Part shown: positions 11,725-29,192 of the stretch, one piece after another
Position numbering within the stretch: the stretch's first letter is position 1
Layout: each line of letters opens with the position of its first letter
Virus record (IMG/VR): IMGVR_UViG_2700989521_000016
Reading direction: 5' to 3' (one strand)
From: a virus
Taxonomy: Duplodnaviria; Heunggongvirae; Uroviricota; Caudoviricetes
Length of the DNA: 29,192 nucleotides
Notes under the pieces: generated by a model
Told to the model about the DNA's origin: nothing
Seen by the model: only the letters and a program-made list of their open reading frames with translations
Databases searched by the model: none
Made by a program: the position numbers and the translations under genes

Positions 11725-11765
11725 GAGTAGATTATGCATGATGAATTTGATGGGTTTTGAATACT

Positions 11766-11791: not shown

Positions 11792-11802
11792 GCATGATAC
11801 TA

Positions 11803-12431: not shown

Positions 12432-12460
12432 CAGATACAGCGTTATCTCCTGAAGAGCAG

Positions 12461-13903: not shown

Positions 13904-13953
13904 TCCGTTGGAGGGGATAATGCTGCTGATATCCTCTGGCGAGGATAAAACAA

Positions 13954-13973
13954 AGCCAGCTCATCGGCTGGCT
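13954..13973. terminator. Bidirectional terminator-like hairpin between terL and the convergent moron gene
   Basis: Stem AGCCAGC/GCTGGCT with loop TCATCG; A-rich upstream (U tract on minus strand) and GTTTGTG downstream on plus strand. Confidence 0.55.
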
Positions 13974-13977
13974 GTTT

Positions 13978-13989
13978 GTGACATGTCAC
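13978..13989. repeat. Perfect 12-bp palindrome GTGACATGTCAC, copy 2
   Basis: Read directly; identical to 11713-11724, shared flanks extend the match to tGTGACATGTCACg. Confidence 0.8.
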
Positions 13990-13993
13990 GGTG

Positions 13994-14350: not shown

Positions 14351-14361
14351 AATCTCACCTT

Positions 14362-14385
14362 AAAAAAATGCCCGGCGAACCGGGC
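14362..14385 (-). terminator. Strong rho-independent terminator between the tRNA and the moron gene
   Basis: Minus strand reads GCCCGG-UUCG-CCGGGC followed by A + UUUUUUU; U tract ends 12 nt before the moron start codon. Confidence 0.75.
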
Positions 14386-14547
14386 GAACTGGAAGCAATG
14401 AGTTCTTCCTTCCGTGGATGTACGGGTTTACAGCATGAAGTCATCGCAATGGCGTCCTGCTGTAAAAAGTGCGGTGATAGTCCTTCAAGGGAAACCATCA
14501 CCGCCAAGCACTGGAACTTCTGGCATCACGGTCCTTAGGCGTGATTC

Positions 14548-14624
14548 TGGCGTGGCATGCAGGATTCGAACCTGCGACCAACCGCTTAGAAGGCGGTTGC
14601 TCTGTCCGACTGAGCTAATGCCAC
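14548..14624 (-). tRNA. tRNA-Arg (anticodon UCU), phage-borne
   Basis: Manually folded 77-nt cloverleaf on minus strand: acceptor GTGGCAT/ATGCCAC, D-arm GCTC/GAGC, anticodon stem ACCGC/GCGGT with loop CTTCTAA (anticodon TCT), T-arm GCAGG-TTCGAAT-CCTGC identical to E. coli argU as recalled, discriminator G and encoded CCA. Confidence 0.8.
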
Positions 14625-14946
14625 AACGCTGAGAGCACTTAGCCTGTTAAGGCACCACACTTTGTCGCGGCTCCATAAATGCTCTCATCGTTGTACCCTC
14701 GTCTCTTCCGAGGCGTCACACCGAATCGCCGGGATGGTGAATCCCCGTGCGCGGAATAAAACCGCTCGACTTGCACATTCCGGCTACCTGGTTCGTTTGC
14801 CCGAGCAAGGGAGGGTGCCCCTTAAACGTATCCAGGCCGCTATCGGCGCATGTGCCATACGCCGTACTGCTCAAAATAAAAGCTCACTCCACCTGTTCAA
14901 TTTAACGACAAGCCAGTCAGGTTAGTAACCGGAATGAACTTTTTGG

Positions 14947-14961
14947 TTACCTGAAAGGTAA
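14947..14961. promoter_or_regulatory. Perfect TTACC-N5-GGTAA palindrome at the head of the virion-gene operon
   Basis: TTACCTGAAAGGTAA read directly, right half-site runs into GGTAATAAT (possible -10); a second GGTAATAAT at 15017-15025. Confidence 0.6.
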
Positions 14962-15051
14962 TAATTCGTGCGTTAAATGTCAACCGACTACGATAAATAA
15001 ATCATATGTGGTTAAATTGGTAATAATTTAATTGCGTACGGAGTCATTGAT

Positions 15052-15258
15052 ATGTGCATGGGTAGCTCACCATCAGTGCCTGCAACACCAGAAGTTCAGG
15101 CAGCACCACAGGAGCAGGATGCCGCCGTTGTTGATGCCCGCGACGAAGAAACTCGTCGCCGTCGCGCTGCTGCTGGTCGTAGTTCTACGCTGCTTACCGG
15201 TTCTCAGGGCGACACATCAACCGCTAATACCAGCGGTAAAACGCTACTTGGTCAGTAA
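15052..15258 (+). CDS. Small hypothetical protein (68 aa) preceding the portal gene
   Basis: ATG at 15052 with CGGAG SD; Ala/Pro/Arg-rich; no family recognised. Confidence 0.5.
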   Translation: MCMGSSPSVPATPEVQAAPQEQDAAVVDARDEETRRRRAAAGRSSTLLTGSQGDTSTANTSGKTLLGQ

Positions 15259-15272
15259 CCGGAGTCATTGAA

Positions 15273-16952
15273 ATGGCGGAAACAACTAAAGAGCGATTGA
15301 ACAAACAGTTCGCACAACTTGAAAGCGAGCGTCAGTCGTTCGAGCCGCACTGGCGCGAGTTGAGTGATTACATCAACCCGCGTGGTTCCCGCTTTCTGAC
15401 TTCTGAGGTCAACCGTAACGATCGACGCAATACACGCATTATTGATTCGACCGGGACTATGGCGGCGCGCACTCTCGCCAGCGGCATGATGTCAGGCATC
15501 ACAAGCCCCGCGCGTCCGTGGTTTCGCCTGGCTACGCCAGATCCTGAAATGATGGATTATGGCCCTGTTAAGTTGTGGCTTGAGGCGGTGCAGAACCGCA
15601 TGAACGATATGTTTAATGAGTCGAATCTCTATCAGTCTCTGCCGCAGTTATACGGAAGCCTCGGCACATACAGCACTGGTGCAATGGCAGTGCTGGAGGA
15701 TGACGAGGACATCATTCGCACAATGCCATTCCCGATAGGCAGTTACTACCTGGCTAACTCACCTCGTGGCAGTGTGGACACCTGTTTTCGCAAGTTCTCT
15801 ATGACTGTTCGTCAGCTTGTTCAGGAGTTCGGGCTAAATAACGTCAGCGAATCCGTAAAAAGCATGTGGGAAAGCGGCACCTACGAGAAGTGGATTGAAG
15901 TGATGCATTCGGTTTACCCGAACATTGACCGCGATACATCGAAGCTGGATAGCAAGAACAAGCCATTCAAATCGGTTTATTACGAGGTTGGTGGCGATAA
16001 CGACAAGTTGTTGCGTGAGTCCGGATTCGATGAGTTTCCAATTATGGCTCCGCGCTGGGAAGTTAACGGCGAAGATGTTTATGGATCATCATGCCCGGGT
16101 ATGCTGGCGCTTGGACCTGTTAAGGCATTGCAGCTTCTCCAGAAGCGCAAGTCGCAGTTGATTGATAAAGCCACCAATCCGCCGATGGTTGCTCCGACTT
16201 CCCTCAAGAATCAGCGCGCCTCCCTTCTTCCTGGCGACATCACGTATATCGATCAGATTACTGGTCAGGATGGTTTCAGGCCTGCTTATCTGGTTAACCC
16301 CAGTACAGCAGATCTGGTAGCAGACATTCAGGACACTCGCCAAATCATTAACAGCGCCTACTTTGTCGATCTGTTCATGATGTTGCAGAACATCAATACC
16401 CGCTCGATGCCTGTTGAAGCGGTGATCGAAATGAAAGAAGAAAAACTTCTGATGTTGGGGCCGGTTCTGGAGCGTCTGAACGACGAATGTCTTAATCCTC
16501 TCATTGACCGCGCTTTCTCGATGATGGTGCGTAAAAACATGCTGCCGCCACCGCCTGACGCGATGGAAGGTATGCCCCTGAAGGTCGAATACATTTCCGT
16601 CATGGCTCAGGCGCAGAAGTCTATCGGCCTGTCCAGTCTGGCGTCTACGGTCAACTTCATTGGTCAACTTGCGCAAGCGAAACCAGAAGCTCTCGACAAA
16701 CTCAACGTTGATCAGGCGATCGATGCATTCGCTGATATGTCCGGAGTGTCTCCAACCGTCATTGTTCCGCAGGAACAGGTTGAGCAGGCTCGCCAGCAAC
16801 GGGCACAGCAACAACAGCAGCAACAAATGATGGCGATGGGGATGGCGGCGGCACAGGGTGCCAAGACGCTAAGCGAAGCTAAAACTTCGGATCCGAGTGT
16901 TTTGTCAGCTATGGCGAATGCAGTTAGTGGTCAGGGTGGGCAATCACAATGA
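15273..16952 (+). CDS. Portal (head-to-tail connector) protein, podovirus type
   Basis: 559 aa; position after terminase; size and C-terminal Gln/Ala/Met-rich tail (QQRAQQQQQQQMMAMGMAAAQG) recall podovirus connector proteins; family assignment from memory. Confidence 0.8.
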   Translation: MAETTKERLNKQFAQLESERQSFEPHWRELSDYINPRGSRFLTSEVNRNDRRNTRIIDSTGTMAARTLASGMMSGITSPARPWFRLATPDPEMMDYGPVKLWLEAVQNRMNDMFNESNLYQSLPQLYGSLGTYSTGAMAVLEDDEDIIRTMPFPIGSYYLANSPRGSVDTCFRKFSMTVRQLVQEFGLNNVSESVKSMWESGTYEKWIEVMHSVYPNIDRDTSKLDSKNKPFKSVYYEVGGDNDKLLRESGFDEFPIMAPRWEVNGEDVYGSSCPGMLALGPVKALQLLQKRKSQLIDKATNPPMVAPTSLKNQRASLLPGDITYIDQITGQDGFRPAYLVNPSTADLVADIQDTRQIINSAYFVDLFMMLQNINTRSMPVEAVIEMKEEKLLMLGPVLERLNDECLNPLIDRAFSMMVRKNMLPPPPDAMEGMPLKVEYISVMAQAQKSIGLSSLASTVNFIGQLAQAKPEALDKLNVDQAIDAFADMSGVSPTVIVPQEQVEQARQQRAQQQQQQQMMAMGMAAAQGAKTLSEAKTSDPSVLSAMANAVSGQGGQSQ

Positions 16953-17245
16953 CAGATTACGAAGACGATCAACTGAAAGAAGAAAACGCCCGTAAGCAAC
17001 GTGACATGGCGCAGCGTGAAATTGATGACATTCGCTTTGTCATGAGCAGTGAACAGGGGCGTCGCGTTGTATGGTCGGTGCTGGAGAAAGGCCGTGTGTT
17101 TTCCGCTATCTCACCGATGGACGCTATGGCAATGGCATTTAATGAGGGGCAACGCAATCTGGCGCTGGAACTGTTTCAGCGCGTTATGGCGCATTGCCCT
17201 GAACAGTATTTGAAGATGGCCAAAGAGGCCAGTGAACAGGAGTGA
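16949..17245 (+). CDS. Hypothetical acidic protein (98 aa) between portal and scaffold
   Basis: ATG overlaps portal stop (ATGA). Confidence 0.55.
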   Translation: MTDYEDDQLKEENARKQRDMAQREIDDIRFVMSSEQGRRVVWSVLEKGRVFSAISPMDAMAMAFNEGQRNLALELFQRVMAHCPEQYLKMAKEASEQE

Positions 17246-17247
17246 TC

Positions 17248-17943
17248 ATGAATTTATTTGAGCGTTTGCTGTATCGCCGTCTTTGCAATGAGCAACCAGT
17301 CGATGGTGGAGCAGCTCCGGCTGCGTCAGAACCGTCAGCGCCTGCAGGTGATAACCCTGCTCCAGTTGGTGATCCATCACAACAGGAAGGTGATAAGACA
17401 CAACCTGTTGCTGATGGCGATAAACCTGCTGATGACAAAAAGCCTGAAAGCGATAAGCAGGGTGAAAAAAAGGACGGCGATAAACCGGAGGGTGCGCCTG
17501 AGAAGTACGAGTTTCAGGCTGCTGAAGGCGTAGAGCTGGATACAGAAGCGTTGAAGGAATTCGAGCCGGTGGCGCGAGAACTTAACCTGACCAACGAGCA
17601 AGCGCAAAAGCTGGTTGATGCTTATCCGAAGATTCTGGCAGGTGTTCAGCAGCGCCAGGCAGAAGCCTGGCAGAAAACAACCGAGCAGTGGGCTGCGGAT
17701 GTAAAAGCTGACAAAGAAATCGGTGGCGACAAGTTGATTTCTAACCTTAGCGCCGCACAGCGTGCGCTTGACCAGTTCGGGACACCTGAACTCAAAGAGT
17801 ATCTGAACGCCACCGGGCTGGGTAATCACCCTGATCTGGTCAAAACGTTCGTGAAAATCGGAAAGGCGATGTCTGAAGATGGCATGGTCACCGGTGGTAA
17901 TGAAGGCCAGCGTAGTGCGGCCGAAGTGCTCTATGGCAAATAA
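17248..17943 (+). CDS. Scaffolding protein candidate
   Basis: 232 aa; highly acidic, Pro/Asp/Lys-rich low-complexity N-terminal region and helical C-terminus; position between portal and major capsid; ATG at 17248 with ACAGGAG SD (track gives GTG at 17242). Confidence 0.65.
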   Translation: MNLFERLLYRRLCNEQPVDGGAAPAASEPSAPAGDNPAPVGDPSQQEGDKTQPVADGDKPADDKKPESDKQGEKKDGDKPEGAPEKYEFQAAEGVELDTEALKEFEPVARELNLTNEQAQKLVDAYPKILAGVQQRQAEAWQKTTEQWAADVKADKEIGGDKLISNLSAAQRALDQFGTPELKEYLNATGLGNHPDLVKTFVKIGKAMSEDGMVTGGNEGQRSAAEVLYGK

Positions 17944-17951
17944 GAGAGGAA

Positions 17952-18944
17952 ATGACAATGGCTGTTAAAGGCTTAACTGCGCTAACGCTGGCTGACTGGG
18001 GTAAGCGCGTCGATCCAAACGGGAAAGTCGATAAGATTATCGAGCTTCTCGGTCAAACTAACCCGATCCTTCAGGATATGCCTTTTGTCGAAGGGAACCT
18101 TCCTACCGGACACCGAACCACCATTCGTTCTGGTTTACCTTCAGCTACCTGGCGTTTGCTGAACTATGGCGTACAGCCAAGCAAATCAACCACAGTGCAG
18201 GTCACCGATTCCGTTGGCATGCTGGAAACCTATGCTGAGGTCGATAAGTCACTGGCTGATCTGAACGGCAATACCGCCGAATTCCGCCTGTCTGAAGACC
18301 GAGCATTTATTGAAGCGATGAATCAGCAGATGGCGCAGACGCTGTTTTATGGTGATTCCAGCGTTAACCCTCAGCAGTTTATGGGACTGTCCTCCCGCTA
18401 TTCCAGCCTGTCTGCGGGTAATGCTCAGAACATCATTGATGCTGGTGGCACGGGTACAGATAACACCTCAATCTGGTTAGTGGTGTGGGGCGAAAACACC
18501 GTGCATGGCATCTTCCCGAAAGGGCAGAAGGCTGGCATTCAGATGGAAGATAAAGGCCAAGTGACACTGGAAGATGCTAATGGCGGCAAGTACGAAGGCT
18601 ACCGTACCCATTACAAATGGGATAACGGACTTGCTCTGCGTGACTGGCGTTATGTCGTTCGCATTGCAAACATCGATGTCAGCAATCTTTCAGAACCTTC
18701 CTCTGCCGCAAATATTGCGAAGTTGATGGTTAAAGCACTGCATCGCATTCCAAACCGTGGCATGGGGCGCCCAGTGTTCTACATGAACCGCACTGTAGGG
18801 CAGGCTCTTGATCTGCAATCTCTGGAGAAAACATCTCTGGCGATCAGCGTAAAAGAGACAGAAGGCGAGTGGTGGACTTCATTCCGTGGTGTACCAATCC
18901 GTGAAACTGATGCGCTTCTGGAAACAGAAGCCCGCGTGGTGTAA
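17952..18944 (+). CDS. Major capsid protein candidate
   Basis: 330 aa; position after scaffold; followed by a stable hairpin and then a terminator, typical of highly expressed capsid genes; alternative ATG at 17958 has better SD spacing. Confidence 0.7.
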   Translation: MTMAVKGLTALTLADWGKRVDPNGKVDKIIELLGQTNPILQDMPFVEGNLPTGHRTTIRSGLPSATWRLLNYGVQPSKSTTVQVTDSVGMLETYAEVDKSLADLNGNTAEFRLSEDRAFIEAMNQQMAQTLFYGDSSVNPQQFMGLSSRYSSLSAGNAQNIIDAGGTGTDNTSIWLVVWGENTVHGIFPKGQKAGIQMEDKGQVTLEDANGGKYEGYRTHYKWDNGLALRDWRYVVRIANIDVSNLSEPSSAANIAKLMVKALHRIPNRGMGRPVFYMNRTVGQALDLQSLEKTSLAISVKETEGEWWTSFRGVPIRETDALLETEARVV

Positions 18945-18960
18945 CGCCTGTTATTAACCT

Positions 18961-18980
18961 GTGGGTCGTAACAGACCCAC
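18961..18980 (+). other. Perfect 7-bp stem-loop (GTGGGTC-GTAACA-GACCCAC) in the intercistronic region after the capsid gene
   Basis: Read directly; no U tract, so more likely an mRNA processing or stability element than a terminator. Confidence 0.5.
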
Positions 18981-18995
18981 TAATGGAGAAAGAAG

Positions 18996-19433
18996 ATGAT
19001 CACCGACAAACTGTTGATGTTCTCCGAAGCTCAGGCGGTTACGAATACCGCGGCTTCTACTGACGTAATCGATCTCGGTCCAATTGACGGAAAACATCGT
19101 GATATCGGCGTGGGTTACCCGCTTGAGTTTTGGGCGCTGGTTAACACAGCCGCCGCGGCAAGCGGTGATGCAACTGTAAACATCCAGTTGCAGACGAGTG
19201 AGAATAACAGCTCATGGACCACTATTTATGATAGTGGCGCACTGGCAAAGACCGCCCTGACAGCAGGTAAACGAATTGTTTCTGCAAAGGTGCCTGCCGG
19301 TGTTAAGCGATATCTGCGTGTTAACTACTCCGTCGCAACTGGCCCACTAACGGCTGGCGAATTCACTGCTGGTATCAGTCTTGATGTTGATGCCAATACG
19401 CCGTATCCGATCCGCTCAAAAGTAATTGGTTAA
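18996..19433 (+). CDS. Hypothetical virion protein (145 aa), possible capsid decoration or accessory protein
   Basis: ORF with GGAGAAAG SD; position after capsid gene. Confidence 0.6.
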   Translation: MITDKLLMFSEAQAVTNTAASTDVIDLGPIDGKHRDIGVGYPLEFWALVNTAAAASGDATVNIQLQTSENNSSWTTIYDSGALAKTALTAGKRIVSAKVPAGVKRYLRVNYSVATGPLTAGEFTAGISLDVDANTPYPIRSKVIG

Positions 19434-19443
19434 GGTGATATCG

Positions 19444-19779
19444 ATGTCAGGTGAGAAACCAAGATACCGCGTTCTGCGCCTCTCTCATATCCATAACACA
19501 CTGTGGCCGGAGGGGGCAGAAATCGAATACGAAGGTGAGCCTGGTAGCGCACTGGAACCTGTTAACGATGCAGCCAGACAGGCAAAAGCAAAGGTAGCAG
19601 GAAAGGTGTCTATGGCAGCAACCAGCACCAAAATCATCAACGATGTGTCAGATGATGGTGAACTGGATAAGCTCCGTGAAGAGTACGAATTGCTCTTTAA
19701 CGAGAAGCCACACCATAACGCCAAAGCCGAAACGCTCCGCGAGAAGATCGCAGATAAGCGTAAAGAACTGGGCGTGTAA
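19444..19779 (+). CDS. Hypothetical protein (111 aa)
   Basis: ATG at 19444 with AAGGTGA SD (track begins at TTG 19426). Confidence 0.55.
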   Translation: MSGEKPRYRVLRLSHIHNTLWPEGAEIEYEGEPGSALEPVNDAARQAKAKVAGKVSMAATSTKIINDVSDDGELDKLREEYELLFNEKPHHNAKAETLREKIADKRKELGV

Positions 19780-19794
19780 GCCTCGCGAATCAGA

Positions 19795-19816
19795 CAAGGG
19801 GCTTCGGCCCCTTTAT
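19795..19816 (+). terminator. Rho-independent terminator after the capsid gene cluster
   Basis: Stem AAGGGGC/GCCCCTT with TTCG tetraloop followed by TATT. Confidence 0.65.
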
Positions 19817-19829
19817 TGCAGGAGTGTAT

Positions 19830-20153
19830 ATGGAACTCGTAAACCTCAAAACCGGCACTGACAGCTACCAGGATGAGAGCGGAGAAACCAGAACTCGCGA
19901 TGAATACCCGTGGGGGCTGTGCATCACTCTTAATAACGACACATTGAATAAGCTGAAGGCGCAACCTCAGGGCGTCGGAACAGAAGTGATGATAACTGCA
20001 AAGGCTGTTATTCGAGGCCTGTCTGCCAGAGAAACTGACGATGGTGTTAATCGCAGCGCCGATCTGCAGATCACTGATATGGCGATCGCTCCTGTTTCCG
20101 GGGATGTAGAAAAATCAGCGGCTGAAACCCTGTACGGCAATGGGGGTGAGTAA
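19830..20153 (+). CDS. Hypothetical virion-module protein (107 aa)
   Basis: ATG at 19830 with GGAG SD (track gives GTG 19824). Confidence 0.55.
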   Translation: MELVNLKTGTDSYQDESGETRTRDEYPWGLCITLNNDTLNKLKAQPQGVGTEVMITAKAVIRGLSARETDDGVNRSADLQITDMAIAPVSGDVEKSAAETLYGNGGE

Positions 20154-20758
20154 TGGCCTCTGTAGTAGAGATCTGCAATCGTGCGCTGTCCAATATTGGC
20201 AATAGCCGCAGCATTAACAGCCTGACGGAAGCCAGCAAGGAAGCGGGGGAATGTTCGCTGCACTTTGAGGCCTGCCGTGATGCTGTGCTTTCTGATTTTG
20301 ACTGGAACTTTGCTACCAAACGCGTGTCGCTTGCAGATACGAGCAATCCACCGCCTGACTGGGAATATGCGTATCAGTACCCGTCCGATTGTCTGCGCAT
20401 TACTGAAATTATGCTTCCTGGTGTACGCAATCCAACAGCAGCAATGCGCGTTCAGTACGAAGTTGGTGCAGACACCAACGGAACAGGAAAGTTGATCTAC
20501 ACAGACCAGCCTCAGGCATGGCTCAAGTATGTCTCTCGCGTTACAGATGTGAACATGTTTGATGCCATTTTTATGGAGGCGTTGGCCTGGCGTCTTGCGG
20601 CAGCTATTAACATGGCGCTGACTGGGAATGCAGACCTCGGTACGTTTGCCCTCAATATGTACAATCGCGTGATTCTTAGTGCTGGCTCGCATAGCCAGAA
20701 TGAATCACAGGAACCACAGCCACCGGTTGATGAGTTTACCATTGCGAGGTTGTCCTGA
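20153..20758 (+). CDS. Tail tubular protein A / gatekeeper-like (podovirus gp11-like, tentative)
   Basis: 201 aa; immediately upstream of the large tail tubular B-like gene; size and position match podovirus gp11; ATG overlaps previous stop (TAATG). Confidence 0.6.
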   Translation: MASVVEICNRALSNIGNSRSINSLTEASKEAGECSLHFEACRDAVLSDFDWNFATKRVSLADTSNPPPDWEYAYQYPSDCLRITEIMLPGVRNPTAAMRVQYEVGADTNGTGKLIYTDQPQAWLKYVSRVTDVNMFDAIFMEALAWRLAAAINMALTGNADLGTFALNMYNRVILSAGSHSQNESQEPQPPVDEFTIARLS

Positions 20759-23229
20759 TGGCTATCAGTTGGATCCAGCCCAGCTTTGCCGGTGGTGAGA
20801 TTGGACCGTTGTTGTACGGGCGTATTGACATGGCGAAGTACCAGGTGGCATTGCGCAAGTGCGATAACTTTATCGTGCGGCAGTATGGCGGCGTTGAGAA
20901 TCGACCTGGTACGCGTTTTGTCGGTGCCGCCAAATACCCAAATCGGAAATGCCGCCTGATCCCGTTCCAGTTCTCGACGGTTCAGACCTATGCTCTGGAG
21001 TTCGGACACCAGTACATGCGCGTTATCAAAGATGGTGCGTTGGTGCTGAACAGCAGCAATGTTATTTATGAAATTGCCACGCCATATACTGAAGCCGATC
21101 TGTTCCGAATTAAATTCACGCAAAGCGCCGACGTGCTTACGCTGGTTCACCCGGCATACCCGCCGAAAGAGTTGCGCCGATATGCTCATGACAACTGGCA
21201 ACTGGTTGATGTGGTAACGAAGAACGGGCCATTTGAAGATATCAATATTGACGAGTCAGTGACGGTTTATGCCAGCGCCAGCACCGGGACAATTACGTTA
21301 ACGGCAAGCGCCTCTATTTTTGGCGCGGAGCAGGTAGGAAAATTGTTCTATCTGGAACAGCCTGCAGTGGATTCAGTGCCGGTATGGGAAACCAGTAAGA
21401 GTACGTCGATTGGCGATATTCGCCGTGCAGACAGTAACTACTATCGCGCCGTTACAGCAGGCAAAACAGGTACTTTGCGCCCTTCGCATACAGAAGGCAC
21501 ATCATGGGATGGCTGGGGCGGATCCGGTGATGATGATACTGGCATTGAGTGGGAATATCTGCACAGTGGTTTTGGCATTGCCCGTATCACTGCTGCAAAT
21601 GGAACTACTGCAACTGCCGAGGTGATTTCCTATATCCCTTCGCAGGTAGTTGGCGAGGATAATGCCAGCTATAAATGGGCTAAATATACCTGGAACAGTG
21701 TTAATGGTTATCCTGGCACTGTTGTTTATTATCAACAACGTCTTTACTTCGCCGCATCGACTGCGTTCCCTCAGACTATCTGGGCCAGCCGTACCGGGGA
21801 TTATAAGGATTTTGGCAAAAGCAATCCTACGCAGGATGACGACAGAATTATCTACACCTATGCCGGGCGTCAGGTTAATGAGATCCGCCACCTGATTGAT
21901 GTCGGTTCGCTGGTGGCACTGACTTCCGGAGGTGAGTACGTCATCACCGGCGACCAGAACAAAGTGTTAACCCCATCATCATTTGCATTCAGCTCTCAGG
22001 GATCAAATGGCTCGAGCAATGTCCCACCAATTGCCGTGGCGAATATTGCTCTGTTCGTCCAGGAGAAAGGCAGTGTTGTCCGTGATTTGGCCTACTCATT
22101 CGATGTTGACGGCTATCAGGGGAACGACCTGACCATCCTTGCCAATCATCTTTTTCAGAAGCACAGCATTGTTGACTGGTGCTTCTCTATTGTCCCTTAC
22201 TCCAGCGCCTTCTGCATTCGTGATGACGGTAAATTACTGGTGATGACCTATTTGCGTGATCAGCAGGTTTTTGCATGGGCACCACAATCCAGTACCGGAA
22301 AATATGAAAGCACATGCAGTATCAGCGAAGGCAATGAAGATGCGGTGTATTTCGTCGTTAACCGAACCGTTAACGGGCAAACAGTGAGATACATCGAGCG
22401 GCTGTCCAGCCGTTTATTTACCAGCGATGAAGATGCTTTCTTTGTTGATTCTGGCCTTAGCTATGATGGAAGAAATACGTCTGACAGAACGATGACCATC
22501 ACTGGTGGTTCTGGCGAATGGGATTACCGCGTGGAATATACAATCAGTATTTCTGGTGGTGCGTACTTCACCAGTAGTGATGTCGGTGCGCAACTACAGT
22601 TCCCTTATACCGGAACTGATCCTGATACTGGCGATGAAGTGTCAAAAGAATTACGTTGCGACATTATTTCTGTAACCAGCAACACCGCTGTAGTGGTTCG
22701 TGCTAACAGGAACGTCCCGCCATCCCTCAGGAATGTGGCCACCACGAACTGGCAGATGGCGTGCCGGGCATTTGGCGGCTTGTCTCATCTTGAAGGTCAG
22801 ACCGTAAACATCCTCTCTGATGCGAACGTGGAACCACAGAAAGTAGTTTCCGGAGGTGCCGTCACGCTTGAATCACCAGGGGCTGTAGTGCACATCGGCC
22901 TGCCAATAACTGCTGAATTCGAAACACTGGATATCAACATTAACGGACAGGAAACGCTGCTGGACAAAAAACAGGTGATCCCGTCCGTTACTCTGGTTGT
23001 GAATGCCAGTCGCGGCATCTGGGCGACTACTCCCGGCGGTAAATGGTACGAATATCCACAGCGTGAATTCGAGTTCTACGATGATCCTGTTGATGACGCT
23101 ACCGGAAAAGTAGAAGTGAAACTGGACAGTAACTGGGGCAAAAACGGACGTGTAAAAATCCGTCAGCTTGATCCGTTGCCGCTGTCTGTTCTTGCCGTTA
23201 TTCCTCGCCTTACTGTTGGGGGATTCTGA
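20758..23229 (+). CDS. Tail tubular protein B / nozzle-like (podovirus gp12-like, tentative)
   Basis: 823 aa; segment QQRLYFA...SRTGDYKDF...DDDRIIYTY...SLVALTSGGEYVITG parallels T7 gp12 as recalled; start overlaps previous stop (TGATG). Confidence 0.7.
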   Translation: MAISWIQPSFAGGEIGPLLYGRIDMAKYQVALRKCDNFIVRQYGGVENRPGTRFVGAAKYPNRKCRLIPFQFSTVQTYALEFGHQYMRVIKDGALVLNSSNVIYEIATPYTEADLFRIKFTQSADVLTLVHPAYPPKELRRYAHDNWQLVDVVTKNGPFEDINIDESVTVYASASTGTITLTASASIFGAEQVGKLFYLEQPAVDSVPVWETSKSTSIGDIRRADSNYYRAVTAGKTGTLRPSHTEGTSWDGWGGSGDDDTGIEWEYLHSGFGIARITAANGTTATAEVISYIPSQVVGEDNASYKWAKYTWNSVNGYPGTVVYYQQRLYFAASTAFPQTIWASRTGDYKDFGKSNPTQDDDRIIYTYAGRQVNEIRHLIDVGSLVALTSGGEYVITGDQNKVLTPSSFAFSSQGSNGSSNVPPIAVANIALFVQEKGSVVRDLAYSFDVDGYQGNDLTILANHLFQKHSIVDWCFSIVPYSSAFCIRDDGKLLVMTYLRDQQVFAWAPQSSTGKYESTCSISEGNEDAVYFVVNRTVNGQTVRYIERLSSRLFTSDEDAFFVDSGLSYDGRNTSDRTMTITGGSGEWDYRVEYTISISGGAYFTSSDVGAQLQFPYTGTDPDTGDEVSKELRCDIISVTSNTAVVVRANRNVPPSLRNVATTNWQMACRAFGGLSHLEGQTVNILSDANVEPQKVVSGGAVTLESPGAVVHIGLPITAEFETLDININGQETLLDKKQVIPSVTLVVNASRGIWATTPGGKWYEYPQREFEFYDDPVDDATGKVEVKLDSNWGKNGRVKIRQLDPLPLSVLAVIPRLTVGGF

Positions 23230-23693
23230 TGATCGATGTTCAAATTATTCCCGCAACCGAAGAGCATCTTCAGATGATTTTGCCGGATGTTCGTCAGGCT
23301 GATATTGACGAACTGTATGCTGTATCGCTGATGACTACCGAAGATGCGCTGCGTGTTGGTCTGCGCACTGCGACCATGGCCTGGTCAGGATTTGCAAACG
23401 GAGAACTGGTAACCATGTTTGGTGTATCTCCGGCGTCAATGATTGGTGGCAATGGTACGCCCTGGCTGGTCGGAACCAGCCGTATTGAAAAATATCAGAA
23501 GACATTTCTTCGCCACTGCCGCCCTGTATTGCAGCAGATGCTGGCAGTTTATCCGCGCCTGGAAAACTACGTCGACGAGCGAAACCATGTTGCCAAAGCA
23601 TGGCTGCACTGGCTTGGATTCAGGCTTGAAGAAGCCGCGCCTTATGGTGCTCTTGGTCTTAATTTCCACAGATTTCACATGGAGAGAAAATAA
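23229..23693 (+). CDS. Hypothetical virion protein (154 aa), positional equivalent of podovirus internal virion protein A
   Basis: Start overlaps previous stop (TGATG); no family recognised with confidence. Confidence 0.55.
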   Translation: MIDVQIIPATEEHLQMILPDVRQADIDELYAVSLMTTEDALRVGLRTATMAWSGFANGELVTMFGVSPASMIGGNGTPWLVGTSRIEKYQKTFLRHCRPVLQQMLAVYPRLENYVDERNHVAKAWLHWLGFRLEEAAPYGALGLNFHRFHMERK

Positions 23694-24232
23694 TGTGTAA
23701 CCCAGCCATCGCTTTGGTTGCCGTCACAGTGGCATCCACAGCCGCGTCAATGTACAGCCAGAGCAAGCAGGCAAAATACCAGTCAGCCATAGCTGATCGG
23801 AATACTGAAATTGCTGAAGCTCAGGCACAGGATTCAATCAATCGTGGGAATATTGAAGCGGATCAGCGTCGTCGTGAAATGCGTCAACGCTCAGGCACTG
23901 CGGCGGCCACTATGGGGGCTACCGGTGCGGAATTAAGTAGCGGAACAGCTCTTGACGTTTTTGCGGATAATGCTCAGTTCGGCACTCTTGATGCGTTAAC
24001 GACAGTGAATAATGCTCAGCGTGAGGCATATGGGTATCAGGTTCAGGGAATGAATGCTCAGGCACAGGGGGCTGCTGCTCAGTCGGCTGCTAAATCATCG
24101 ATGACCAGCACTTTGTTAACGGCACCACTAAAAGCATACGGTGCATACCAGATGGGCGGAGGAACGTGGAGCCCATTCTCTCAGAAGGCTGCGCCGATTT
24201 CTGCTGCTGTTGGCACTCCAACCGGTCGATAA
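23693..24232 (+). CDS. Internal virion protein B-like (podovirus gp14-like, tentative)
   Basis: 179 aa; begins MC, hydrophobic N-terminus, Ala/Gln-rich, ends ...TGR, as recalled for T7 gp14-type proteins. Confidence 0.6.
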   Translation: MCNPAIALVAVTVASTAASMYSQSKQAKYQSAIADRNTEIAEAQAQDSINRGNIEADQRRREMRQRSGTAAATMGATGAELSSGTALDVFADNAQFGTLDALTTVNNAQREAYGYQVQGMNAQAQGAAAQSAAKSSMTSTLLTAPLKAYGAYQMGGGTWSPFSQKAAPISAAVGTPTGR

Positions 24233-24244
24233 GGGGATAATAAG

Positions 24245-26677
24245 ATGCCAGTTGTACCAACAACATCGGGCCGTCAGGTTCAGAGCAGAGGGATTTCGAC
24301 GCAGGGATTCTCATCGTTTCAGACACCAAATGTCGGTGATGTACTTGGCGATGTTGCAGAGCAATATGCAGGTATTATTGCGCAGGCAAAACAGCGTGCG
24401 AATGTTGCTATGGCTCAGGATGCTTCTCTTAGCTTAAGCCAGATAAGCAGCGATCTGCTGAATAACCCTGAAACAGGTTTGCTTAACCTGAAAGGGAAAA
24501 ATGCTATTGGAAAAGGTCAGGAGTATACGCAGCAGCAGCGCATTCAGTTCACTACGCAGGCCGGGCGGCACGAGATAGGGCAAATTAATGCCTACGAAGA
24601 AGGTCAGTTTCAGGCGACGCTGCTGAATAATGGTAAAAATGCCGCAGCATTGTATGGCGACAATGCCGCATATGTATTGGCTAATAAGCAAACTTTCCAG
24701 CAAATTGAGGATTACGGCATTGCGCATGGCTGGAGCGACGAGCAAATCCAGGCCAAGAAAATCGAGTTTAAAGAGAAGGTTGCTGATGCCGCATTGTCCC
24801 AGTGGTCGGCAAACAATGCGACCGCATTCATCCAAAGTAATGGCGAGTTAAGTGATACTGCTGCTGGAGCTCGCCGTGCTGTAGCAGATAGTGACTCTTC
24901 CGAGCGTGCCCGTGGCATACGCAACAATAACCCAGGAAATCTCGAATACAGCAAAACTAATCCGTGGGTAGGCCAGACCGGTGATGATGGTCGATTTGCT
25001 AAATTCGAAACACCTGAACACGGGATTCGTGCATTAGGGCGAAACCTGATGTCGTATCAGAGGCAGGGTATTGATACCGTCAGCGAGATAATTAATCGCT
25101 GGGCACCGCCTACTGATAAAAATGATACTATGTCGTATATCAAAGCAGTGTGCGAACAACTTGGCGTTTCTGCTGATGATCCTCTCGATGCATCTAATCC
25201 TGATACCCTGAAGGCGCTTTGTGCAGCCATTATCCATCATGAGAACGGTAGCCAGCCATACAGTGATCAGCAGTTAACTGCTGGTGTCAGTGCAGCACTT
25301 GGTTTATCAACAATTCCAACCAACACCAAACGCTATACCGGTAATGCAGCATTCGATGCGGCATCTCCTGAGGCTCAGGCAAGTTTTATGCGACAGGCGG
25401 ATCAACTGCGTCGGCAGCAGCAGGCTGAATATAAAACGATAATTGACAGCAAGGTTCGCGATGCGACGGCTGCGTATATGCGTGGCGTTGAATTTCCTAA
25501 CCCACCTGGTGAGGATGATTTTATTGCAGCTTATGGCGTCAGAGAAGGAAACCTGCGATATACCGAGTTCAGAAATACGCAGATCGCCGGACAGTATATA
25601 GGCTCTTTCCGCAACATGCCGACAAGCAGCATTACCGCATATGTTGAGCAATTACGCCCGGATACTGGTGAGACAGGAGAGGGTTATGCGTCTCGCGCAG
25701 CTCTTTATGACAACGTTGTTTCGGCTGCAAATCAGGTGATAAAGCAGCGGCAGTCGGATCCTGTGCAGTTCTCTCTTGCCTCCGGACAGGCAAAGCCTAT
25801 CGACATGAGCAATAAGGATAACTTTGGACAGAGCGTTGCCTTGCGTGCCGCTCAGATCAGTGACCTTGCTAAGTCATATGGCACTCCACTGACGTTCTTT
25901 TCCAAAGACGAGGCCAATCAGATCGGTGTTTTCTTTCGTGATGCTCCAGTTTCCCAACAGGCAGCATATCTCGATACCATCAGGCAGAGCACTGGTGGTG
26001 GGCAGGTGTATATGTCAGCACTACAGCAGATCAGTGCCAACGCTCCATCTGCTGCCGTTGCCGGGATACTGATGGACAAGCCTGGTGGTATTTTGGCAGA
26101 AACAAACTGGTTTAATCCGGATGTTTCCGTGTCTCCTGAAACCGCTGCGCAGACAATTCTTGCTGGCGCGGCGGCTCGTAAAGGTACTGATGATGCGAAA
26201 GGTATTCCGATGCCTAAAGATGCTGATCTTCGCCTTGAGTTTTCTGACATGGTGAAGGATGCATTTGCTGGTGATGCTCAGGGGGCATCAATGGCATACG
26301 AGATCGCAAAGGACTATTACGCTGGTGTGATGGCGAAAAAAGGCGTGATATCAGGCGAAATTGACACTGATATCTGGAAACAGGCTGTTAACGTAGCTAC
26401 AGGTGGCGTGCATGACTATAACGGAATGGGGAATGTCCTTTTGCCGTGGGGAATGTCTGCAGAGCAATTCGATAAGCAGGTTAATCAGGCTTGGAATGAA
26501 CAAGTTGTCGGCACCGGGATAAAAACACCGCCTGGTCAGTATGGTTTGCAAAGTTACGGCGATAGTCAGTACCTGGTGAAACTTGGTACTGGTTATCTGC
26601 TGAAAGATGATGGTTCTCCCGTTGTTCTTAATCTGACACAGAAGCGTCAGAGATTCTCCGGAGATATTCCGCAATGA
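24245..26677 (+). CDS. Large internal virion/ejection protein (810 aa) with an embedded globular domain of possible enzymatic function
   Basis: Position and size match podovirus internal core proteins; conserved-looking segment RGIRNNNPGNLEYS...FAKFETPEHGIRALGRNL...IIHHENG at about nt 24905-25260. Confidence 0.7.
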   Translation: MPVVPTTSGRQVQSRGISTQGFSSFQTPNVGDVLGDVAEQYAGIIAQAKQRANVAMAQDASLSLSQISSDLLNNPETGLLNLKGKNAIGKGQEYTQQQRIQFTTQAGRHEIGQINAYEEGQFQATLLNNGKNAAALYGDNAAYVLANKQTFQQIEDYGIAHGWSDEQIQAKKIEFKEKVADAALSQWSANNATAFIQSNGELSDTAAGARRAVADSDSSERARGIRNNNPGNLEYSKTNPWVGQTGDDGRFAKFETPEHGIRALGRNLMSYQRQGIDTVSEIINRWAPPTDKNDTMSYIKAVCEQLGVSADDPLDASNPDTLKALCAAIIHHENGSQPYSDQQLTAGVSAALGLSTIPTNTKRYTGNAAFDAASPEAQASFMRQADQLRRQQQAEYKTIIDSKVRDATAAYMRGVEFPNPPGEDDFIAAYGVREGNLRYTEFRNTQIAGQYIGSFRNMPTSSITAYVEQLRPDTGETGEGYASRAALYDNVVSAANQVIKQRQSDPVQFSLASGQAKPIDMSNKDNFGQSVALRAAQISDLAKSYGTPLTFFSKDEANQIGVFFRDAPVSQQAAYLDTIRQSTGGGQVYMSALQQISANAPSAAVAGILMDKPGGILAETNWFNPDVSVSPETAAQTILAGAAARKGTDDAKGIPMPKDADLRLEFSDMVKDAFAGDAQGASMAYEIAKDYYAGVMAKKGVISGEIDTDIWKQAVNVATGGVHDYNGMGNVLLPWGMSAEQFDKQVNQAWNEQVVGTGIKTPPGQYGLQSYGDSQYLVKLGTGYLLKDDGSPVVLNLTQKRQRFSGDIPQ

Positions 26678-28476
26678 GTTACTTTGGCCTTAATCCAGTA
26701 AACCAGAATCAGCAGCTTGACGAAGCAGCATCAAATCCAGCTGGCTTTAACAGCGATGTTGGTTTTTTCGACAACGCTGTAGGAGCGGCATTGTCTGGTT
26801 TGTACTCCGGGCTGGTGGCAAAGCCAGATCAGTTGCTATGGGCAGGGATGGATAAAATCGTATCCCCGATTGCTCAGTTTGTTAACGAAAACACCTCGCT
26901 CAATGACACTTCAGTTTCATACATTGCTGAGCAGAGAAAACTAGCAGAGCAGCAGGTTAAGCGGCTGACGCCTGATGCCGCGACAACCGGAACCGCCGGG
27001 CAGGTTCTTTATGGGTTGTTCGATATGGGCGGGCAGGCTGTTGTCGGTACAACGCTCGGTGGTCCGGTCGGAGGTGCTGCGGCGGTAACTTCTCTACAGG
27101 GTTTTTCTGAGTTTGAACGGCTGACAGCACAGGGTGTTGATTTCAGGACGGCGCAGGAAGCGGGATTAGTGCAGGGTATTACTGCTGGTGCCGGAACACT
27201 GATCCCTATGAGCCTCGGGTTACGTGCTGGTGGTGCGCTGGCGGAAGGTGTGGCGGCTCAGCTTGCGCGGACGGGTGAAAGTTCAGTGCGACGCGCCGCA
27301 GCAACAGCAGTACGTGCAACGCCAGATATTGCCTATGCCGCAGGTACAAATATTGCGTTCGGTATGGCACAGCGTGGGCTTACTGCAAAAACGCTTCGTG
27401 ATGGTGGCTATAGCGAAATGGCTAACCAGTATGATGTGTTGGATCGACAGGCAATTGCTATTGATGCTGTTCTTGGGGTGGTGTTTGGTGGTGTCGGCAG
27501 ATTTATTAACTCTCGCGGCGAGCCTACAAGCGCACCAAATTTTTCACCAGTTGATATCGATGCTGCACTGGCGGCGAATGCCGCTCATCATGCTGAAATT
27601 GATATTGCTCCCGGCGTTCCGATCAACGTGCTTTCGCGTAATTCGCACATTCAGGCTCTGCGAAAAGCCATGTCTGATGTTAGCCAGGGGAGACCTGTAG
27701 ACGTTGCCAGCATTGTTGAGTCTGCATCTTTCAGTGAAATTCCTGGGCGCAAGAGTCTGCTGTCTCAGGCAGTTAATGAGGCTCTGTCATCTGTAGATGA
27801 TGGAGTAACGGCGCGCGCTATAGAAAATCGGTTGCTTGAAGAACAGGCCGCGCAGCTTTTGCCGCGTGGCGATAGACAGGTTTACCAGTCTGAAATCGCT
27901 AATAGCCAACGAATTATTGAAAATCTCACTGAACAGCGCGCACAAATTCTTGCAGAAGAGCCAACCGGTAGCGGTAAGGCTTTATCTCGTGCTCGATCAG
28001 ATAAACAGGCCAGACTTCGCGATATTGACCAACGAATCCGGCAGGCACAAGAACGCCTGGAATTTTCCCGTAACGCGTTGGCACCGCATGAGCCTGGCGG
28101 TCAGTTTTTTGAAGCTCGAGCAGAACTGGCACGGCGACAGCAGGCAGAAAGTGAACTTAATGCTCAGGCTGTTTCATTCTATAAAACAGCAGAGGTCAGG
28201 ACGCCAGACGAAGTAGCTCCTTTTGAGCCCGGTAAGATATTGCAACAGACAGAACAAAAAATGATGGCAGATCCGGCAGGAGATATTGATCTGCGTATAG
28301 CTGAAGACTCGCTGCTTGAATCTCCGGACATGATAATCACCGTGCTGGATGATGATGGTAATCCACAATCGCGCAGCGCGCGTGAAGTACTGGATGAAGC
28401 GAACAGGGAAAGTGAGCAGGCAATACAGGATTCCAGCCTGTTTGATGTCGCTGTGGCGTGTTTCTTGAGAGGTTAA
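26674..28476 (+). CDS. Internal virion/ejection protein (600 aa)
   Basis: Start overlaps previous stop (ATGA); Gly/Ala-rich N-terminal half, charged helical C-terminal half. Confidence 0.65.
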   Translation: MSYFGLNPVNQNQQLDEAASNPAGFNSDVGFFDNAVGAALSGLYSGLVAKPDQLLWAGMDKIVSPIAQFVNENTSLNDTSVSYIAEQRKLAEQQVKRLTPDAATTGTAGQVLYGLFDMGGQAVVGTTLGGPVGGAAAVTSLQGFSEFERLTAQGVDFRTAQEAGLVQGITAGAGTLIPMSLGLRAGGALAEGVAAQLARTGESSVRRAAATAVRATPDIAYAAGTNIAFGMAQRGLTAKTLRDGGYSEMANQYDVLDRQAIAIDAVLGVVFGGVGRFINSRGEPTSAPNFSPVDIDAALAANAAHHAEIDIAPGVPINVLSRNSHIQALRKAMSDVSQGRPVDVASIVESASFSEIPGRKSLLSQAVNEALSSVDDGVTARAIENRLLEEQAAQLLPRGDRQVYQSEIANSQRIIENLTEQRAQILAEEPTGSGKALSRARSDKQARLRDIDQRIRQAQERLEFSRNALAPHEPGGQFFEARAELARRQQAESELNAQAVSFYKTAEVRTPDEVAPFEPGKILQQTEQKMMADPAGDIDLRIAEDSLLESPDMIITVLDDDGNPQSRSAREVLDEANRESEQAIQDSSLFDVAVACFLRG

Positions 28477-28481
28477 ATTAA

Positions 28482-29192
28482 ATGAGACAGGAATGTATAC
28501 AAGCGGTCCAGCAGGCGGCGCAGCGCACGTTAACGGCGCGAGAAATACAGAACATTGAAGACCGCATTTATCGAAATATGCGCTCCATTGCTCGTGATGA
28601 CACGATGTCGTGGAGACAACTTTCCGAATCAGAGCGGCTATATCGTGCAGCACAATTGGCATCTGAAGAATTACAGCGAGAAGCGGCATTAAAGAAACGT
28701 CGTGTGGCCCTCACTATAGCCGCACGTCAGAGATTGGATAAATTTATCAATAGCTATCAAGGGGCTGATGGGAAACTTGGCGCTCTTAACCGTACTATTG
28801 CTTTTAATGCAGACGGTAAATCGAATTTCCTCTCTGTTGAATCCAGAACAAAAGCCACCCGTGAGTATGCATTGAGTCAATTGCAGGAGGCATTCGAAGC
28901 AGTTGATCCTCGCTTTTTTGGTCTGTTTGAAGATGAAGCGGGCGTACGTGACCTGGTATATGAAATGCGGGGGCAAAATACTGGCAATGCTAAAGCAAGA
29001 AAAGGTGCTAAGGCGTGGAGAGAAGTGACAGAGCTACTGCGCCGCCGGTTTAATGATGCTGGTGGGGACATTGGCTATCTCGAAAACTGGGGGATCCCTC
29101 AACATCATTCTATGGAAAAGGTTGGGGCGGTATCAAAGGATAAGTGGGTTAGCGATGTTATAGGTAAGCTGGATCGTAGACTGGCCCCCTGA
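28482..29192 (+). CDS. Hypothetical virion-module protein (236 aa); stop codon is the last three bases of the window
   Basis: Complete ORF, TGA at 29190-29192; charged/helical; no family recognised. Confidence 0.6.
   Translation: MRQECIQAVQQAAQRTLTAREIQNIEDRIYRNMRSIARDDTMSWRQLSESERLYRAAQLASEELQREAALKKRRVALTIAARQRLDKFINSYQGADGKLGALNRTIAFNADGKSNFLSVESRTKATREYALSQLQEAFEAVDPRFFGLFEDEAGVRDLVYEMRGQNTGNAKARKGAKAWREVTELLRRRFNDAGGDIGYLENWGIPQHHSMEKVGAVSKDKWVSDVIGKLDRRLAP

Follow-up and report, generated by a model that had tools for sequence, protein, structure and literature searches.

Tail and ejection-protein genes of a phiV10-like Uetakevirus prophage of Escherichia coli, interrupted by IS2

Background

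What kind of virion is built by a phage whose late genes run from the capsid straight into a series of large proteins, with no tape measure, tail tube or sheath gene, and whose early genes look lambdoid? The question is raised by a 29,192-nucleotide (nt) stretch of viral DNA (IMG/VR record IMGVR_UViG_2700989521_000016), referred to here in its whole length as the window, in which seven plus-strand open reading frames (ORFs) follow the capsid genes. A first-pass annotation, made from the sequence alone, had read these ORFs as the virion module of a temperate podovirus, of an epsilon15-like or T7-like structural lineage, joined to lambdoid early and replication modules. We recovered all seven at the annotated coordinates and sizes (Table 1; the last was annotated as 28482-29192), and we find that window positions 20153-29192 almost certainly represent that half of a late operon which encodes the tail and ejection proteins, in a phiV10-like Uetakevirus prophage of Escherichia coli. 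The phage type is already known: it occurs commonly in E. coli, representatives have been sequenced and imaged, and its lysogeny genes have been tested experimentally.

Relatives and distribution of the prophage

A megablast search of the tail and ejection region against 50,697 phage records returned as best matches the Escherichia phages phiV10, phiv142-3, vB_EcoP_ZX5, PAS61 and HEMP4 and the O157 typing phages 9 and 10, all at 96.6-98% identity over 92-93% of the query, followed by Enterobacter phage Tyrion (81%) and then Salmonella phage epsilon15 (75%). A DNA search with the first 20 kb of the window matched the same phages. Measured across the window, nucleotide identity to phiV10 is 95-98% over about 90% of the 29.2 kb (1-8774 and 11378-29176) with the gene order unchanged, and phiv142-3, vB_EcoP_ZX5, PAS61 and TL-2011b resemble the window to the same degree. 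Direct blastn placed 1-8774 on phiV10 26927-35713, 11378-24535 on phiV10 38766-39104 and then 1-12833, and 24528-29176 on phiV10 12907-17555; the genes run from int to gene 20, in the order that the phiV10 genome takes as a prophage.

The same collinearity is seen gene by gene. Every ORF outside an accessory region at 8617-11385 maps in order onto phiV10 genes, passing through int, the early genes, terS, terL, portal, protease, capsid protein, staple, adaptor, nozzle and internal proteins. From the portal gene to the end of the window 17 genes were scored, of which 16 share 90-99.7% amino acid (aa) identity with phiV10 and 24-88% with epsilon15; the single exception encodes a 179-aa protein that is only 63% identical to its phiV10 counterpart. 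Both phiV10 and epsilon15 are classified in the genus Uetakevirus in their records. The guideline of the International Committee on Taxonomy of Viruses for a genus is about 70% genome-wide nucleotide identity, a value that the window exceeds in its comparison with phiV10; epsilon15, the type species, shares 74-81% nucleotide identity with the alignable parts of the window.

Such prophages are frequent. A match to the region was found in 552 of 5426 complete E. coli genomes (about one in ten), the best being that of strain WP3-S18-ESBL-09 at 99.9% over the region. The WP3-S18-ESBL-09 prophage lies directly after guaA; over window positions 1-9023 and 10746-29176 the two sequences share 99.85% identity. 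For vB_EcoP_ZX5, which is 98% identical, a short tail has been seen by electron microscopy; that phage, a temperate member of Uetakevirus, inserts at the guaA 3' end, and experiments have tested its repressor, antirepressor and integrase (PMC9782041). The proposal of a temperate podovirus of the epsilon15-like lineage is thus borne out, while the accompanying remark that regulation in this group is less studied than in lambda-type phages is a matter of degree. The attP core ATTGAGTGGGAATGATT was not found in the window, and because the window begins at the start codon of the integrase gene, attL lies outside it.

IS2 insertion and deletion in this copy

The window ends inside a gene. Its last ORF had been taken for an internal protein of 236 aa, and although the ORF exists, the complete protein does not: the reading frame consists of 231 codons of an 824-aa gene, five codons encoded by IS2, and a stop. 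Similarity to every relative ends at 29176, and the 16 nt that remain, TAGACTGGCCCCCTGA, are the left terminus of IS2. The same junction occurs in none of the 5426 complete E. coli genomes, and the end of the window is probably a draft-contig break within the insertion sequence (IS). A second lesion affects the 810-aa gene, which carries an in-frame deletion of 81 nt (27 codons) after residue 95, with the deletion point near 24528-24535. Alignment shows the 27 codons to be present in phiV10 gp18, in the WP3-S18-ESBL-09 prophage and in epsilon15 gp15. The two blast segments that flank the deletion overlap by 8 nt, which suggests that it arose between short direct repeats. Because IS2 interrupts the 824-aa gene in particular, and because the 810-aa gene lacks 27 codons, we infer that this prophage copy is probably defective and decaying.

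The reverse, that the copy is intact and inducible and its terminal IS2 bases are an artefact of assembly or windowing, appears unlikely to us. It is true that IS2 is visible over 16 bases only, and that the other scored ORFs have their full length and share 90-100% identity with their counterparts in viable phages (except in 8617-11385, in 13994-14632 and in the 179-aa gene). However, those 16 bases match the IS2 terminus exactly, similarity to all relatives stops exactly where they begin, and a real insertion usually shows itself in just this way, as a draft contig that stops at a repeated IS. The loss of 27 codons from the 810-aa gene, which phiV10, the WP3-S18-ESBL-09 prophage and epsilon15 retain, is an independent lesion.

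Distal genes in complete relatives

Complete relatives show what follows the interrupted gene: the rest of the 824-aa gene, a tiny membrane protein, a gene in the tailspike position, O-antigen acyltransferases and a lysis cassette, then host DNA. In the WP3-S18-ESBL-09 prophage, for example, the operon continues through the 824-aa gene, the tailspike-position gene, acyltransferases, a holin, a GH19 endolysin and a gene in the spanin position (DUF2514) before it reaches the host gene yfgI. The complete relatives contain no tape measure, tube, sheath, baseplate or RNA polymerase gene. Within the window, no ORF had its best PHROG or Pfam match in a tape measure, tube or sheath family, in agreement with the first-pass annotation; the sole 'tape measure' match in PHROG falls on the peptidoglycan-hydrolase domain of the 810-aa protein, which matches phrog_992 much more strongly and over its full length.

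These observations leave a long-tailed phage, with its tape measure, tube and sheath genes past the window end, next to no probability. Such a reading draws on the fact that the window stops inside the virion module, so that the distal genes are not seen directly, but the 99.85%-identical prophage continues with the tailspike-position gene, acyltransferases, lysis cassette and host genes, and phiV10 and epsilon15 have the same layout. Moreover, the annotations given to phage homologues of the nozzle described below are tail protein, tail tube B, head-closure or phage stabilization protein; tape measure, tube and sheath do not occur among them. We rejected a long tail on this distal layout and on these annotations, and no homology search placed the proteins of the module with siphovirus or myovirus tail components.

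Tail adaptor and nozzle

The first two genes after the capsid block had been described as a gp11-like and gp12-like pair, a description that held. The 201-aa protein, 99.5% identical to phiV10 gp14, matches by sequence the connector of Carin-1, a Cobetia marina phage (8ck1_E, 2.9e-26), and the adaptor of the Legionella phage LME-1 (1.3e-5). An AlphaFold2 model built on 27 homologues had a mean predicted local distance difference test (pLDDT) score of 86.9. In Foldseek this model matched the Carin-1 connector at 2.5e-17, the LME-1 adaptor at 6e-9 and T7 gp11 (7box_M) at E 1.1e-6, the last with probability 1.00 and a template modelling (TM) score of 0.59-0.61. Further matches were to the adaptors of KP32, Kp7, Kp9, PhiM1, HRP29, E1004 and cyanophages, and all 25 matches at E <= 0.001 were chains from phage tail or neck structures. 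The modelled fold of the 201-aa protein is that of the T7 gp11 adaptor.

A PDB search with the 823-aa protein gave matches to the Carin-1 'Tail Nozzle' (8ck1_A, E 4.6e-216) and to LME-1 orf18 (1.4e-15). A profile of 35 nozzle sequences aligned by hhalign with T7 gp12 at E 1.2e-4 and 55% probability over 106 columns (residues 322-438 of the window protein against 351-465 of gp12), and in the same stretch the nozzle profile reaches another solved nozzle, 23sh_T, at 7e-5. When the predicted structure was searched with Foldseek, every one of the top 10 matches was a podovirus nozzle, Carin-1 and LME-1 leading and three T7 gp12 chains coming next at 2e-9 to 6e-9; the matches after the top 10 were unrelated beta-propellers at E >= 2.6e-4. 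For relatives sharing 45-51% identity with the window protein, a precomputed assignment exists to PF25675.2 Phage_nozzle, to which T7 gp12 also belongs. The 823-aa protein is thus a nozzle remotely similar to T7 gp12, its direct link to gp12 being weaker but consistent.

Sequence comparison alone does not establish the links to T7. BLASTP found no significant similarity between the 823-aa protein and T7 gp12 (best E 3.1), the adaptor family profile aligned with T7 gp11 by hhalign at a probability of 0.05%, and PDB profile searches with the family alignments reached only Carin-1, LME-1 and one further nozzle, not T7 gp11 or gp12; fold comparison was therefore needed. A precedent exists in LME-1, in which electron cryo-microscopy revealed an adaptor of twelve subunits and a nozzle of six; the complex 'closely resembles' the tail of T7, a phage to which it has no sequence similarity (PMC12407071). 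The LME-1 adaptor and nozzle match the window proteins by sequence.

Because the portal (E 2.2e-178 to the Carin-1 portal 8ck0_A in PDB), adaptor and nozzle match proteins of Carin-1 and LME-1, those structures show what the window proteins would build. By extrapolation from them, the portal, a member of the T7 gp8 family, would be a dodecamer and carry a dodecameric adaptor, which in turn would carry a hexameric nozzle, the three together forming a short non-contractile tail. Six O-antigen-specific tailspikes, whose gene would lie just beyond the window, would attach to it. Nozzles of this family are very widespread: the search returned 18,247 cluster representatives at E <= 0.001, and homologues occur in 218 phage records, among them Pelagibacter, Vibrio, Xanthomonas, Pseudomonas, Bordetella (BMP-1) and Liberibacter phages. 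We take the phage groups so listed to be short-tailed.

Could the module instead come from a P22-like (Lederbergvirus) phage, with tail proteins gp4 and gp10, a gp26 needle, and ejection proteins gp7, gp20 and gp16? P22 is likewise an enterobacterial podovirus of temperate lifestyle, it too has tailspikes and a lambdoid early region, and one review groups the ejection proteins of 'Epsilon15' with those of P22 (PMC8954989). However, P22 gp4 reached only E 0.53 and a TM-score of 0.32 in the Foldseek search of the adaptor model, against 1e-6 or better for T7-type adaptors; the portal belongs to PF12236, the T7 gp8 family; and Uetakevirus genomes are full-length DNA matches, with no P22-group phage among the matches listed for the structural region. 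With adaptor fold, portal family and DNA matches all contradicting it, a P22-like origin was rejected as extremely improbable. As for the review, its Table 1 lists 'Epsilon 15 gp11 229 aa, gp12 499 aa, gp13 708 aa' as ejection proteins, sizes that do not agree with the epsilon15 record (gp11 201 aa, gp12 825 aa, gp13 154 aa). That table appears to describe a P22-like phage under the epsilon15 name and is unsuitable as a guide to this group.

Internal virion proteins

The first two of the five genes behind the nozzle gene have recognizable T7 relatives. T7 gp13 falls in the same family, phrog_308, as the 154-aa protein (at 1.1e-42), and a gene identical to the 179-aa gene is named 'virion core protein, T7 gp14 family' by PGAP. 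Homologues of gp13 and gp14 thus stand directly 3' of the nozzle gene, as in T7. The 179-aa gene is a mosaic patch: its product is 63% identical to phiV10 gp17 and 67% to epsilon15 gp14, its neighbours being about 99% identical to phiV10, and the same allele is found in other E. coli prophages at 99.9% identity.

The three large proteins that follow are less readily compared. In the 810-aa protein a lysozyme-like peptidoglycan-hydrolase domain occupies about residues 222-371; in PDB it matches residues 3-146 of Gp29 of phage E1004 (9vvp_L, the N-terminus of a 1295-aa protein) at 6.2e-38 and the endolysin 7q47 at 2.1e-17, with no match to Pfam SLT, the family of the T7 gp16 N-terminal domain. 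The 600-aa protein is 97.5% identical to phiV10 gp19 and has one hydrophobic segment by hydropathy (residues 260-278), no recognizable fold, and no Pfam, NCBIfam or PDB match. What remains of the 824-aa protein is 98.3% identical to residues 1-233 of phiV10 gp20, which at full length has no relative in Pfam, NCBIfam or PDB. Searches of PDB with the 179-aa and 600-aa proteins and the full phiV10 gp20 returned nothing meaningful, and Pfam and NCBIfam gave no match for the adaptor, nozzle, 154-, 810-, 600- and 236-aa ORFs. A T7-type gp15 and gp16, the latter with an N-terminal SLT transglycosylase, was not found: neither tblastn nor PDB searches linked the 810-, 600- and 824-aa proteins to T7 gp15 or gp16, and the window ORFs belong to other PHROG families. 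On sequence comparison, the block is collinear with T7 genes 11-14 and then diverges, with three large proteins in place of two and the wall-cutting domain in the first of them: it sits in the middle of the protein in the gp15 position, whereas in T7 it is at the N-terminus of gp16.

Several of our results weigh against reading this block as adaptor, nozzle and ejection proteins of a T7-type tail in a decaying prophage. The adaptor has no match at E <= 0.01 to Pfam PF17212, a model that T7 gp11 matches. The nozzle has no match at E <= 10 to the older PF25675.1 model, which T7 gp12 does match. The nozzle structure prediction is weak (mean pLDDT 60.5, predicted TM-score 0.38, from a 31-sequence alignment spanning 47-90% identity), and its Foldseek TM-scores against T7 gp12 are only about 0.17, so that global TM is not usable and the gp12 link draws on local 3Di and sequence E-values, on the ranking of matches and on the 55%-probability hhalign alignment. 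For the 600-aa and 824-aa proteins no homologue was detected in T7, Pfam or PDB, and for that reason their putative ejection role is argued from gene position and the epsilon15 literature. Finally, defectiveness is argued from a window that itself stops at the IS2 junction.

A working model of the virion can nevertheless be drawn. The five genes after the nozzle gene would encode proteins held inside the capsid: the gp13-like and gp14-like proteins, the 810-aa protein with its hydrolase domain, and the 600-aa and 824-aa proteins. During infection these would be expelled through the nozzle, cut the cell wall and form a channel for DNA across the envelope, by analogy with T7 and with published epsilon15 tomography. 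For the large proteins we infer such a role from their position, the T7 paradigm and citations of epsilon15 work; reportedly the studies behind it are those of Jiang (2006), Chang (2010) and Guichard (2013), known to us through secondary citations. Because the large proteins lack detectable relatives among the solved ejection proteins of T7 and other podoviruses, it is possible, though we hold it only tentatively, that the 810-, 600- and 824-aa proteins build an envelope-spanning channel unlike the T7 ejectosome in architecture, the T7 ejectosome being the only one in the PDB copy used for comparison. A differing channel, if there is one, would belong to the whole already known epsilon15/phiV10 family and would not be special to the window.

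Only part of the T7-like lineage that had been suggested survives, namely the remote homology of the portal-adaptor-nozzle-gp13-gp14 block. Descent from the T7 group proper (Autographiviridae), by a member that turned temperate, would account for the collinearity with T7 genes 11 to 14 and for the shared portal, gp13 and gp14 families, but we consider it hardly credible. Neither the window nor the complete relatives have a phage RNA polymerase or DNA polymerase gene; the capsid protein belongs to Pfam GP7, not to the Gp10A-like family of T7; tblastn of every window ORF against T7 genes 6-18.5 gave no match at E <= 1e-3; and the phiV10 record is classified in Uetakevirus, outside Autographiviridae. 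Membership was rejected; the single-subunit RNA polymerase that it would call for is lacking in the window and in complete relatives alike. The first-pass annotation had likewise seen no phage RNA polymerase, and none is present by size or family among the window ORFs: the longest ORF outside the virion module is terL at 480 aa, which leaves no room for an 883-aa T7-type enzyme.

Late operon and capsid genes

The seven ORFs of the tail region are all on the plus strand and abut or overlap by 1-4 nt. Promoter-like and terminator-like sites are no commoner in the tail region than in shuffled sequence, which fits a single late operon. Upstream of the tail block the order is terS, terL, portal, a gene in the protease position, the capsid protein and three small shell-associated genes (Table 1). 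The portal model PF12236 is matched by T7 gp8 as well (379 bits), and the capsid is of the epsilon15 type, with both a gp7-family capsid protein and a gp10 staple.

Between terL and the portal gene the window also has a tRNA-Arg(TCT). The same tRNA is present in phiV10 (2853-2929, minus strand), where the record has only an overlapping plus-strand hypothetical coding sequence (CDS), PhiV10p04; it is annotated in the WP3-S18-ESBL-09 prophage and absent from epsilon15. Given the tRNA, the overlapping 72-aa plus-strand ORF at 14414-14632 is probably not a gene.

Table 1. Features of the window, with the tail and ejection region first and the remaining features after it
Feature	Position	Strand	Basis and remarks
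Tail adaptor, 201 aa	20153..20758	+	T7 gp11 fold (model); homologue of epsilon15 gp11 and phiV10 gp14
Tail nozzle, 823 aa	20758..23229	+	T7 gp12 type; homologue of epsilon15 gp12 and phiV10 gp15
Internal virion protein, 154 aa	23229..23693	+	T7 gp13 homologue; phrog_308, 9.2e-63
Core/ejection protein, 179 aa	23693..24232	+	T7 gp14 family; Pfam PF24072 T7_gp14, 33 bits (cut-off 27)
Large internal virion protein, 810 aa	24245..26677	+	phrog_992 over full length
Virion-module protein, 600 aa	26674..28476	+	Homologue of epsilon15 gp16 and phiV10 gp19; phrog_1145, function unknown
Virion structural protein, first 231 codons of 824-aa gene	28482..29176	+	phiV10 gp20, epsilon15 gp17; phrog_684 positions 1-235 of 840
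IS2 left terminal 16 nt	29177..29192	+	Identical to first 16 nt of IS2A, E. coli MG1655
Portal protein, 559 aa	15273..16952	+	T7 gp8 family; Pfam PF12236, 623 bits
Capsid shell genes	17952..20153	+	Four genes; Pfam GP7, Bbp16, Gp10-like
Major capsid protein	17952-18944	+	Pfam GP7, 497 bits
Bbp16-type cement protein	18996-19433	+	Pfam Bbp16, 160 bits
117-aa protein within capsid shell block	within 17952..20153	+	Function unknown
epsilon15 gp10-type staple protein	19824-20153	+	Pfam Gp10-like, 173.5 bits
P4-type tyrosine integrase, 416 aa	1..1251	+	Pfam PF13356 Arm-DNA-bind_3, PF22022 Phage_int_M, PF00589 Phage_integrase
RecT-family annealing protein	2796-3764	-	Pfam RecT PF03837, 151.9 bits; PHROG RecT-like
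RecE-like PD-(D/E)XK exonuclease	3734-4555	-	Pfam DUF3799, 79.6 bits; PHROG exonuclease VIII
Helix-turn-helix (HTH) repressor, 194 aa	5160-5744	-	Pfam HTH_3, HTH_26
76-aa protein in Cro position	5899-6129	+	Divergent from repressor; PHROG of transcriptional repressors
Replication initiator	6496-7311	+	Pfam HTH_36 and DnaT DNA-binding domain
Iteron-like direct repeats	6750-6962		At least 6 copies of CC(A/C)AAAAACGGGA, several at 24-nt spacing; inside initiator gene
Lambda-P-family helicase loader	7293-8093	+	Pfam PF06992, 189 bits
tRNA-Arg(TCT)	14548-14624	-	ARAGORN; Rfam 73 bits

Early region

Outside the virion module the window provides for a lambda-style lifestyle, with a P4-type integrase, an excisionase, a repressor and Cro-position pair, RecE/RecT recombination proteins, an iteron-bearing initiator and a P-type loader, and with transcription by the host polymerase. 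The description of this region in the first pass was right in function and loose in family names. The P4-type integrase was correctly named: it has the arm-binding (DUF4102-type), central and catalytic domains, and it is 98.8% identical in amino acid sequence to the phiV10 integrase, which is annotated cd00801 INT_P4. The gene called 'Bet', by contrast, encodes a RecT-family protein paired with a RecE-like nuclease; the two are functionally analogous to Bet and Exo of the Red system and belong to different families. The RecE-like and RecT proteins are two ORFs in different frames in the window and separate genes in the WP3-S18-ESBL-09 prophage, while the phiV10 record (29722-31482) has them as a single fused 586-aa CDS, which is either a real fusion or a one-base error in the record.

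The repressor and the Cro-position gene form a divergent immunity pair. The repressor is 100% identical to phiV10 gp40 and falls in PHROG families of transcriptional regulators and repressors, but Pfam found only HTH domains in its 194 aa and no peptidase S24 domain, so that the C-terminal autocleavage domain of a CI-type repressor is missing. Relatives use an antirepressor (PMC9782041). Of the O/P-like pair, the loader is of the lambda P family and adjoins the iteron-bearing initiator gene. The Pfam domains of the initiator are not those of the lambda O family; its best PHROG match is 'replication initiation protein', with weaker 'O-like' matches to the N-terminal half. The iteron-like repeats are probably the replication origin, positioned as in the lambda O gene. 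A 24-nt inverted repeat is also present inside the initiator gene.

The accessory ('nin-like') region at 8775-11377 differs from that of phiV10 and contains genes of the Ead/Ea22, DUF551 and NinX families. Part of it, 9024-10745, differs also from the otherwise 99.85%-identical WP3-S18-ESBL-09 prophage, as expected of a usual mosaic hot spot.

Discussion

Among known phages, those of the phiV10 group stand closest to the window: the gene order from integrase to gp20, the virion proteins, the repressor and the tRNA-Arg(TCT) are all shared. The window differs from phiV10 itself in its replaced accessory region, its divergent 179-aa gp14-like protein, the 27-codon deletion in the gp18 homologue, the IS2 in the gp20 homologue, and the separate RecE-like and RecT genes. 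In epsilon15 the virion operon is syntenic, with the adaptor 85%, the nozzle 88% and the portal 81% identical to their window counterparts, the large terminase 95%, and an integrase of the same type 87% identical. The capsid shell proteins of epsilon15, in contrast, are only 35-43% identical, the distal internal proteins 24-56% and the repressor 42%, and epsilon15 lacks the tRNA and any tblastn-detectable counterpart of RecT or P.

More distant systems share parts of the virion. Carin-1 (8CK0/8CK1) and LME-1 (9EFK) have other hosts, and no nucleotide similarity to them was seen; the comparison covers portal, adaptor and nozzle. LME-1 has its own, different head decoration protein (PMC12407071). 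T7 resembles the window in gene order from adaptor through nozzle, gp13 and gp14 to the large internal proteins, in the portal Pfam family, gp13 PHROG family, gp14 Pfam family and adaptor fold, and remotely in its nozzle; it has no BLAST-level similarity to the window, its capsid protein is of a different Pfam family, it has two large distal proteins rather than three (810, 600 and 824 aa), and, unlike T7, the window phage is temperate and has no RNA polymerase. The Bordetella phages BPP-1 and BMP-1 and Burkholderia podoviruses of the BcepC6B type share with the window the Bbp16 cement and Bbp19 Pfam families and a homologous nozzle (42% identical in BMP-1). Their homology is confined to the protein level, and they differ in hosts and in tail fibres or receptor-binding proteins.

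In the RefSeq annotation of relatives (NZ_AP022036.1, 1321036-1331920) PGAP still labels the adaptor, nozzle, gp13-like, 837-aa, 600-aa and 824-aa proteins 'hypothetical protein'. The solved homologues 8CK1 and 9EFK now permit specific names for the adaptor and the nozzle.

The interpretation offered by the first-pass annotation is therefore supported, and the finding is an ordinary one, of small significance beyond annotation. The one biological question it touches, how epsilon15-type internal proteins form an ejection channel, had been recognized before, and the window brings no progress on it. With its IS2 cut and in-frame deletion, this copy is probably incapable of yielding infectious particles. 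What the analysis does provide is a confident label for the region, as adaptor, nozzle and internal virion proteins of a Uetakevirus prophage; since such prophages are present in about one in ten complete E. coli genomes and carry O-antigen-modifying genes, recognizing them aids both prophage and serotype annotation.

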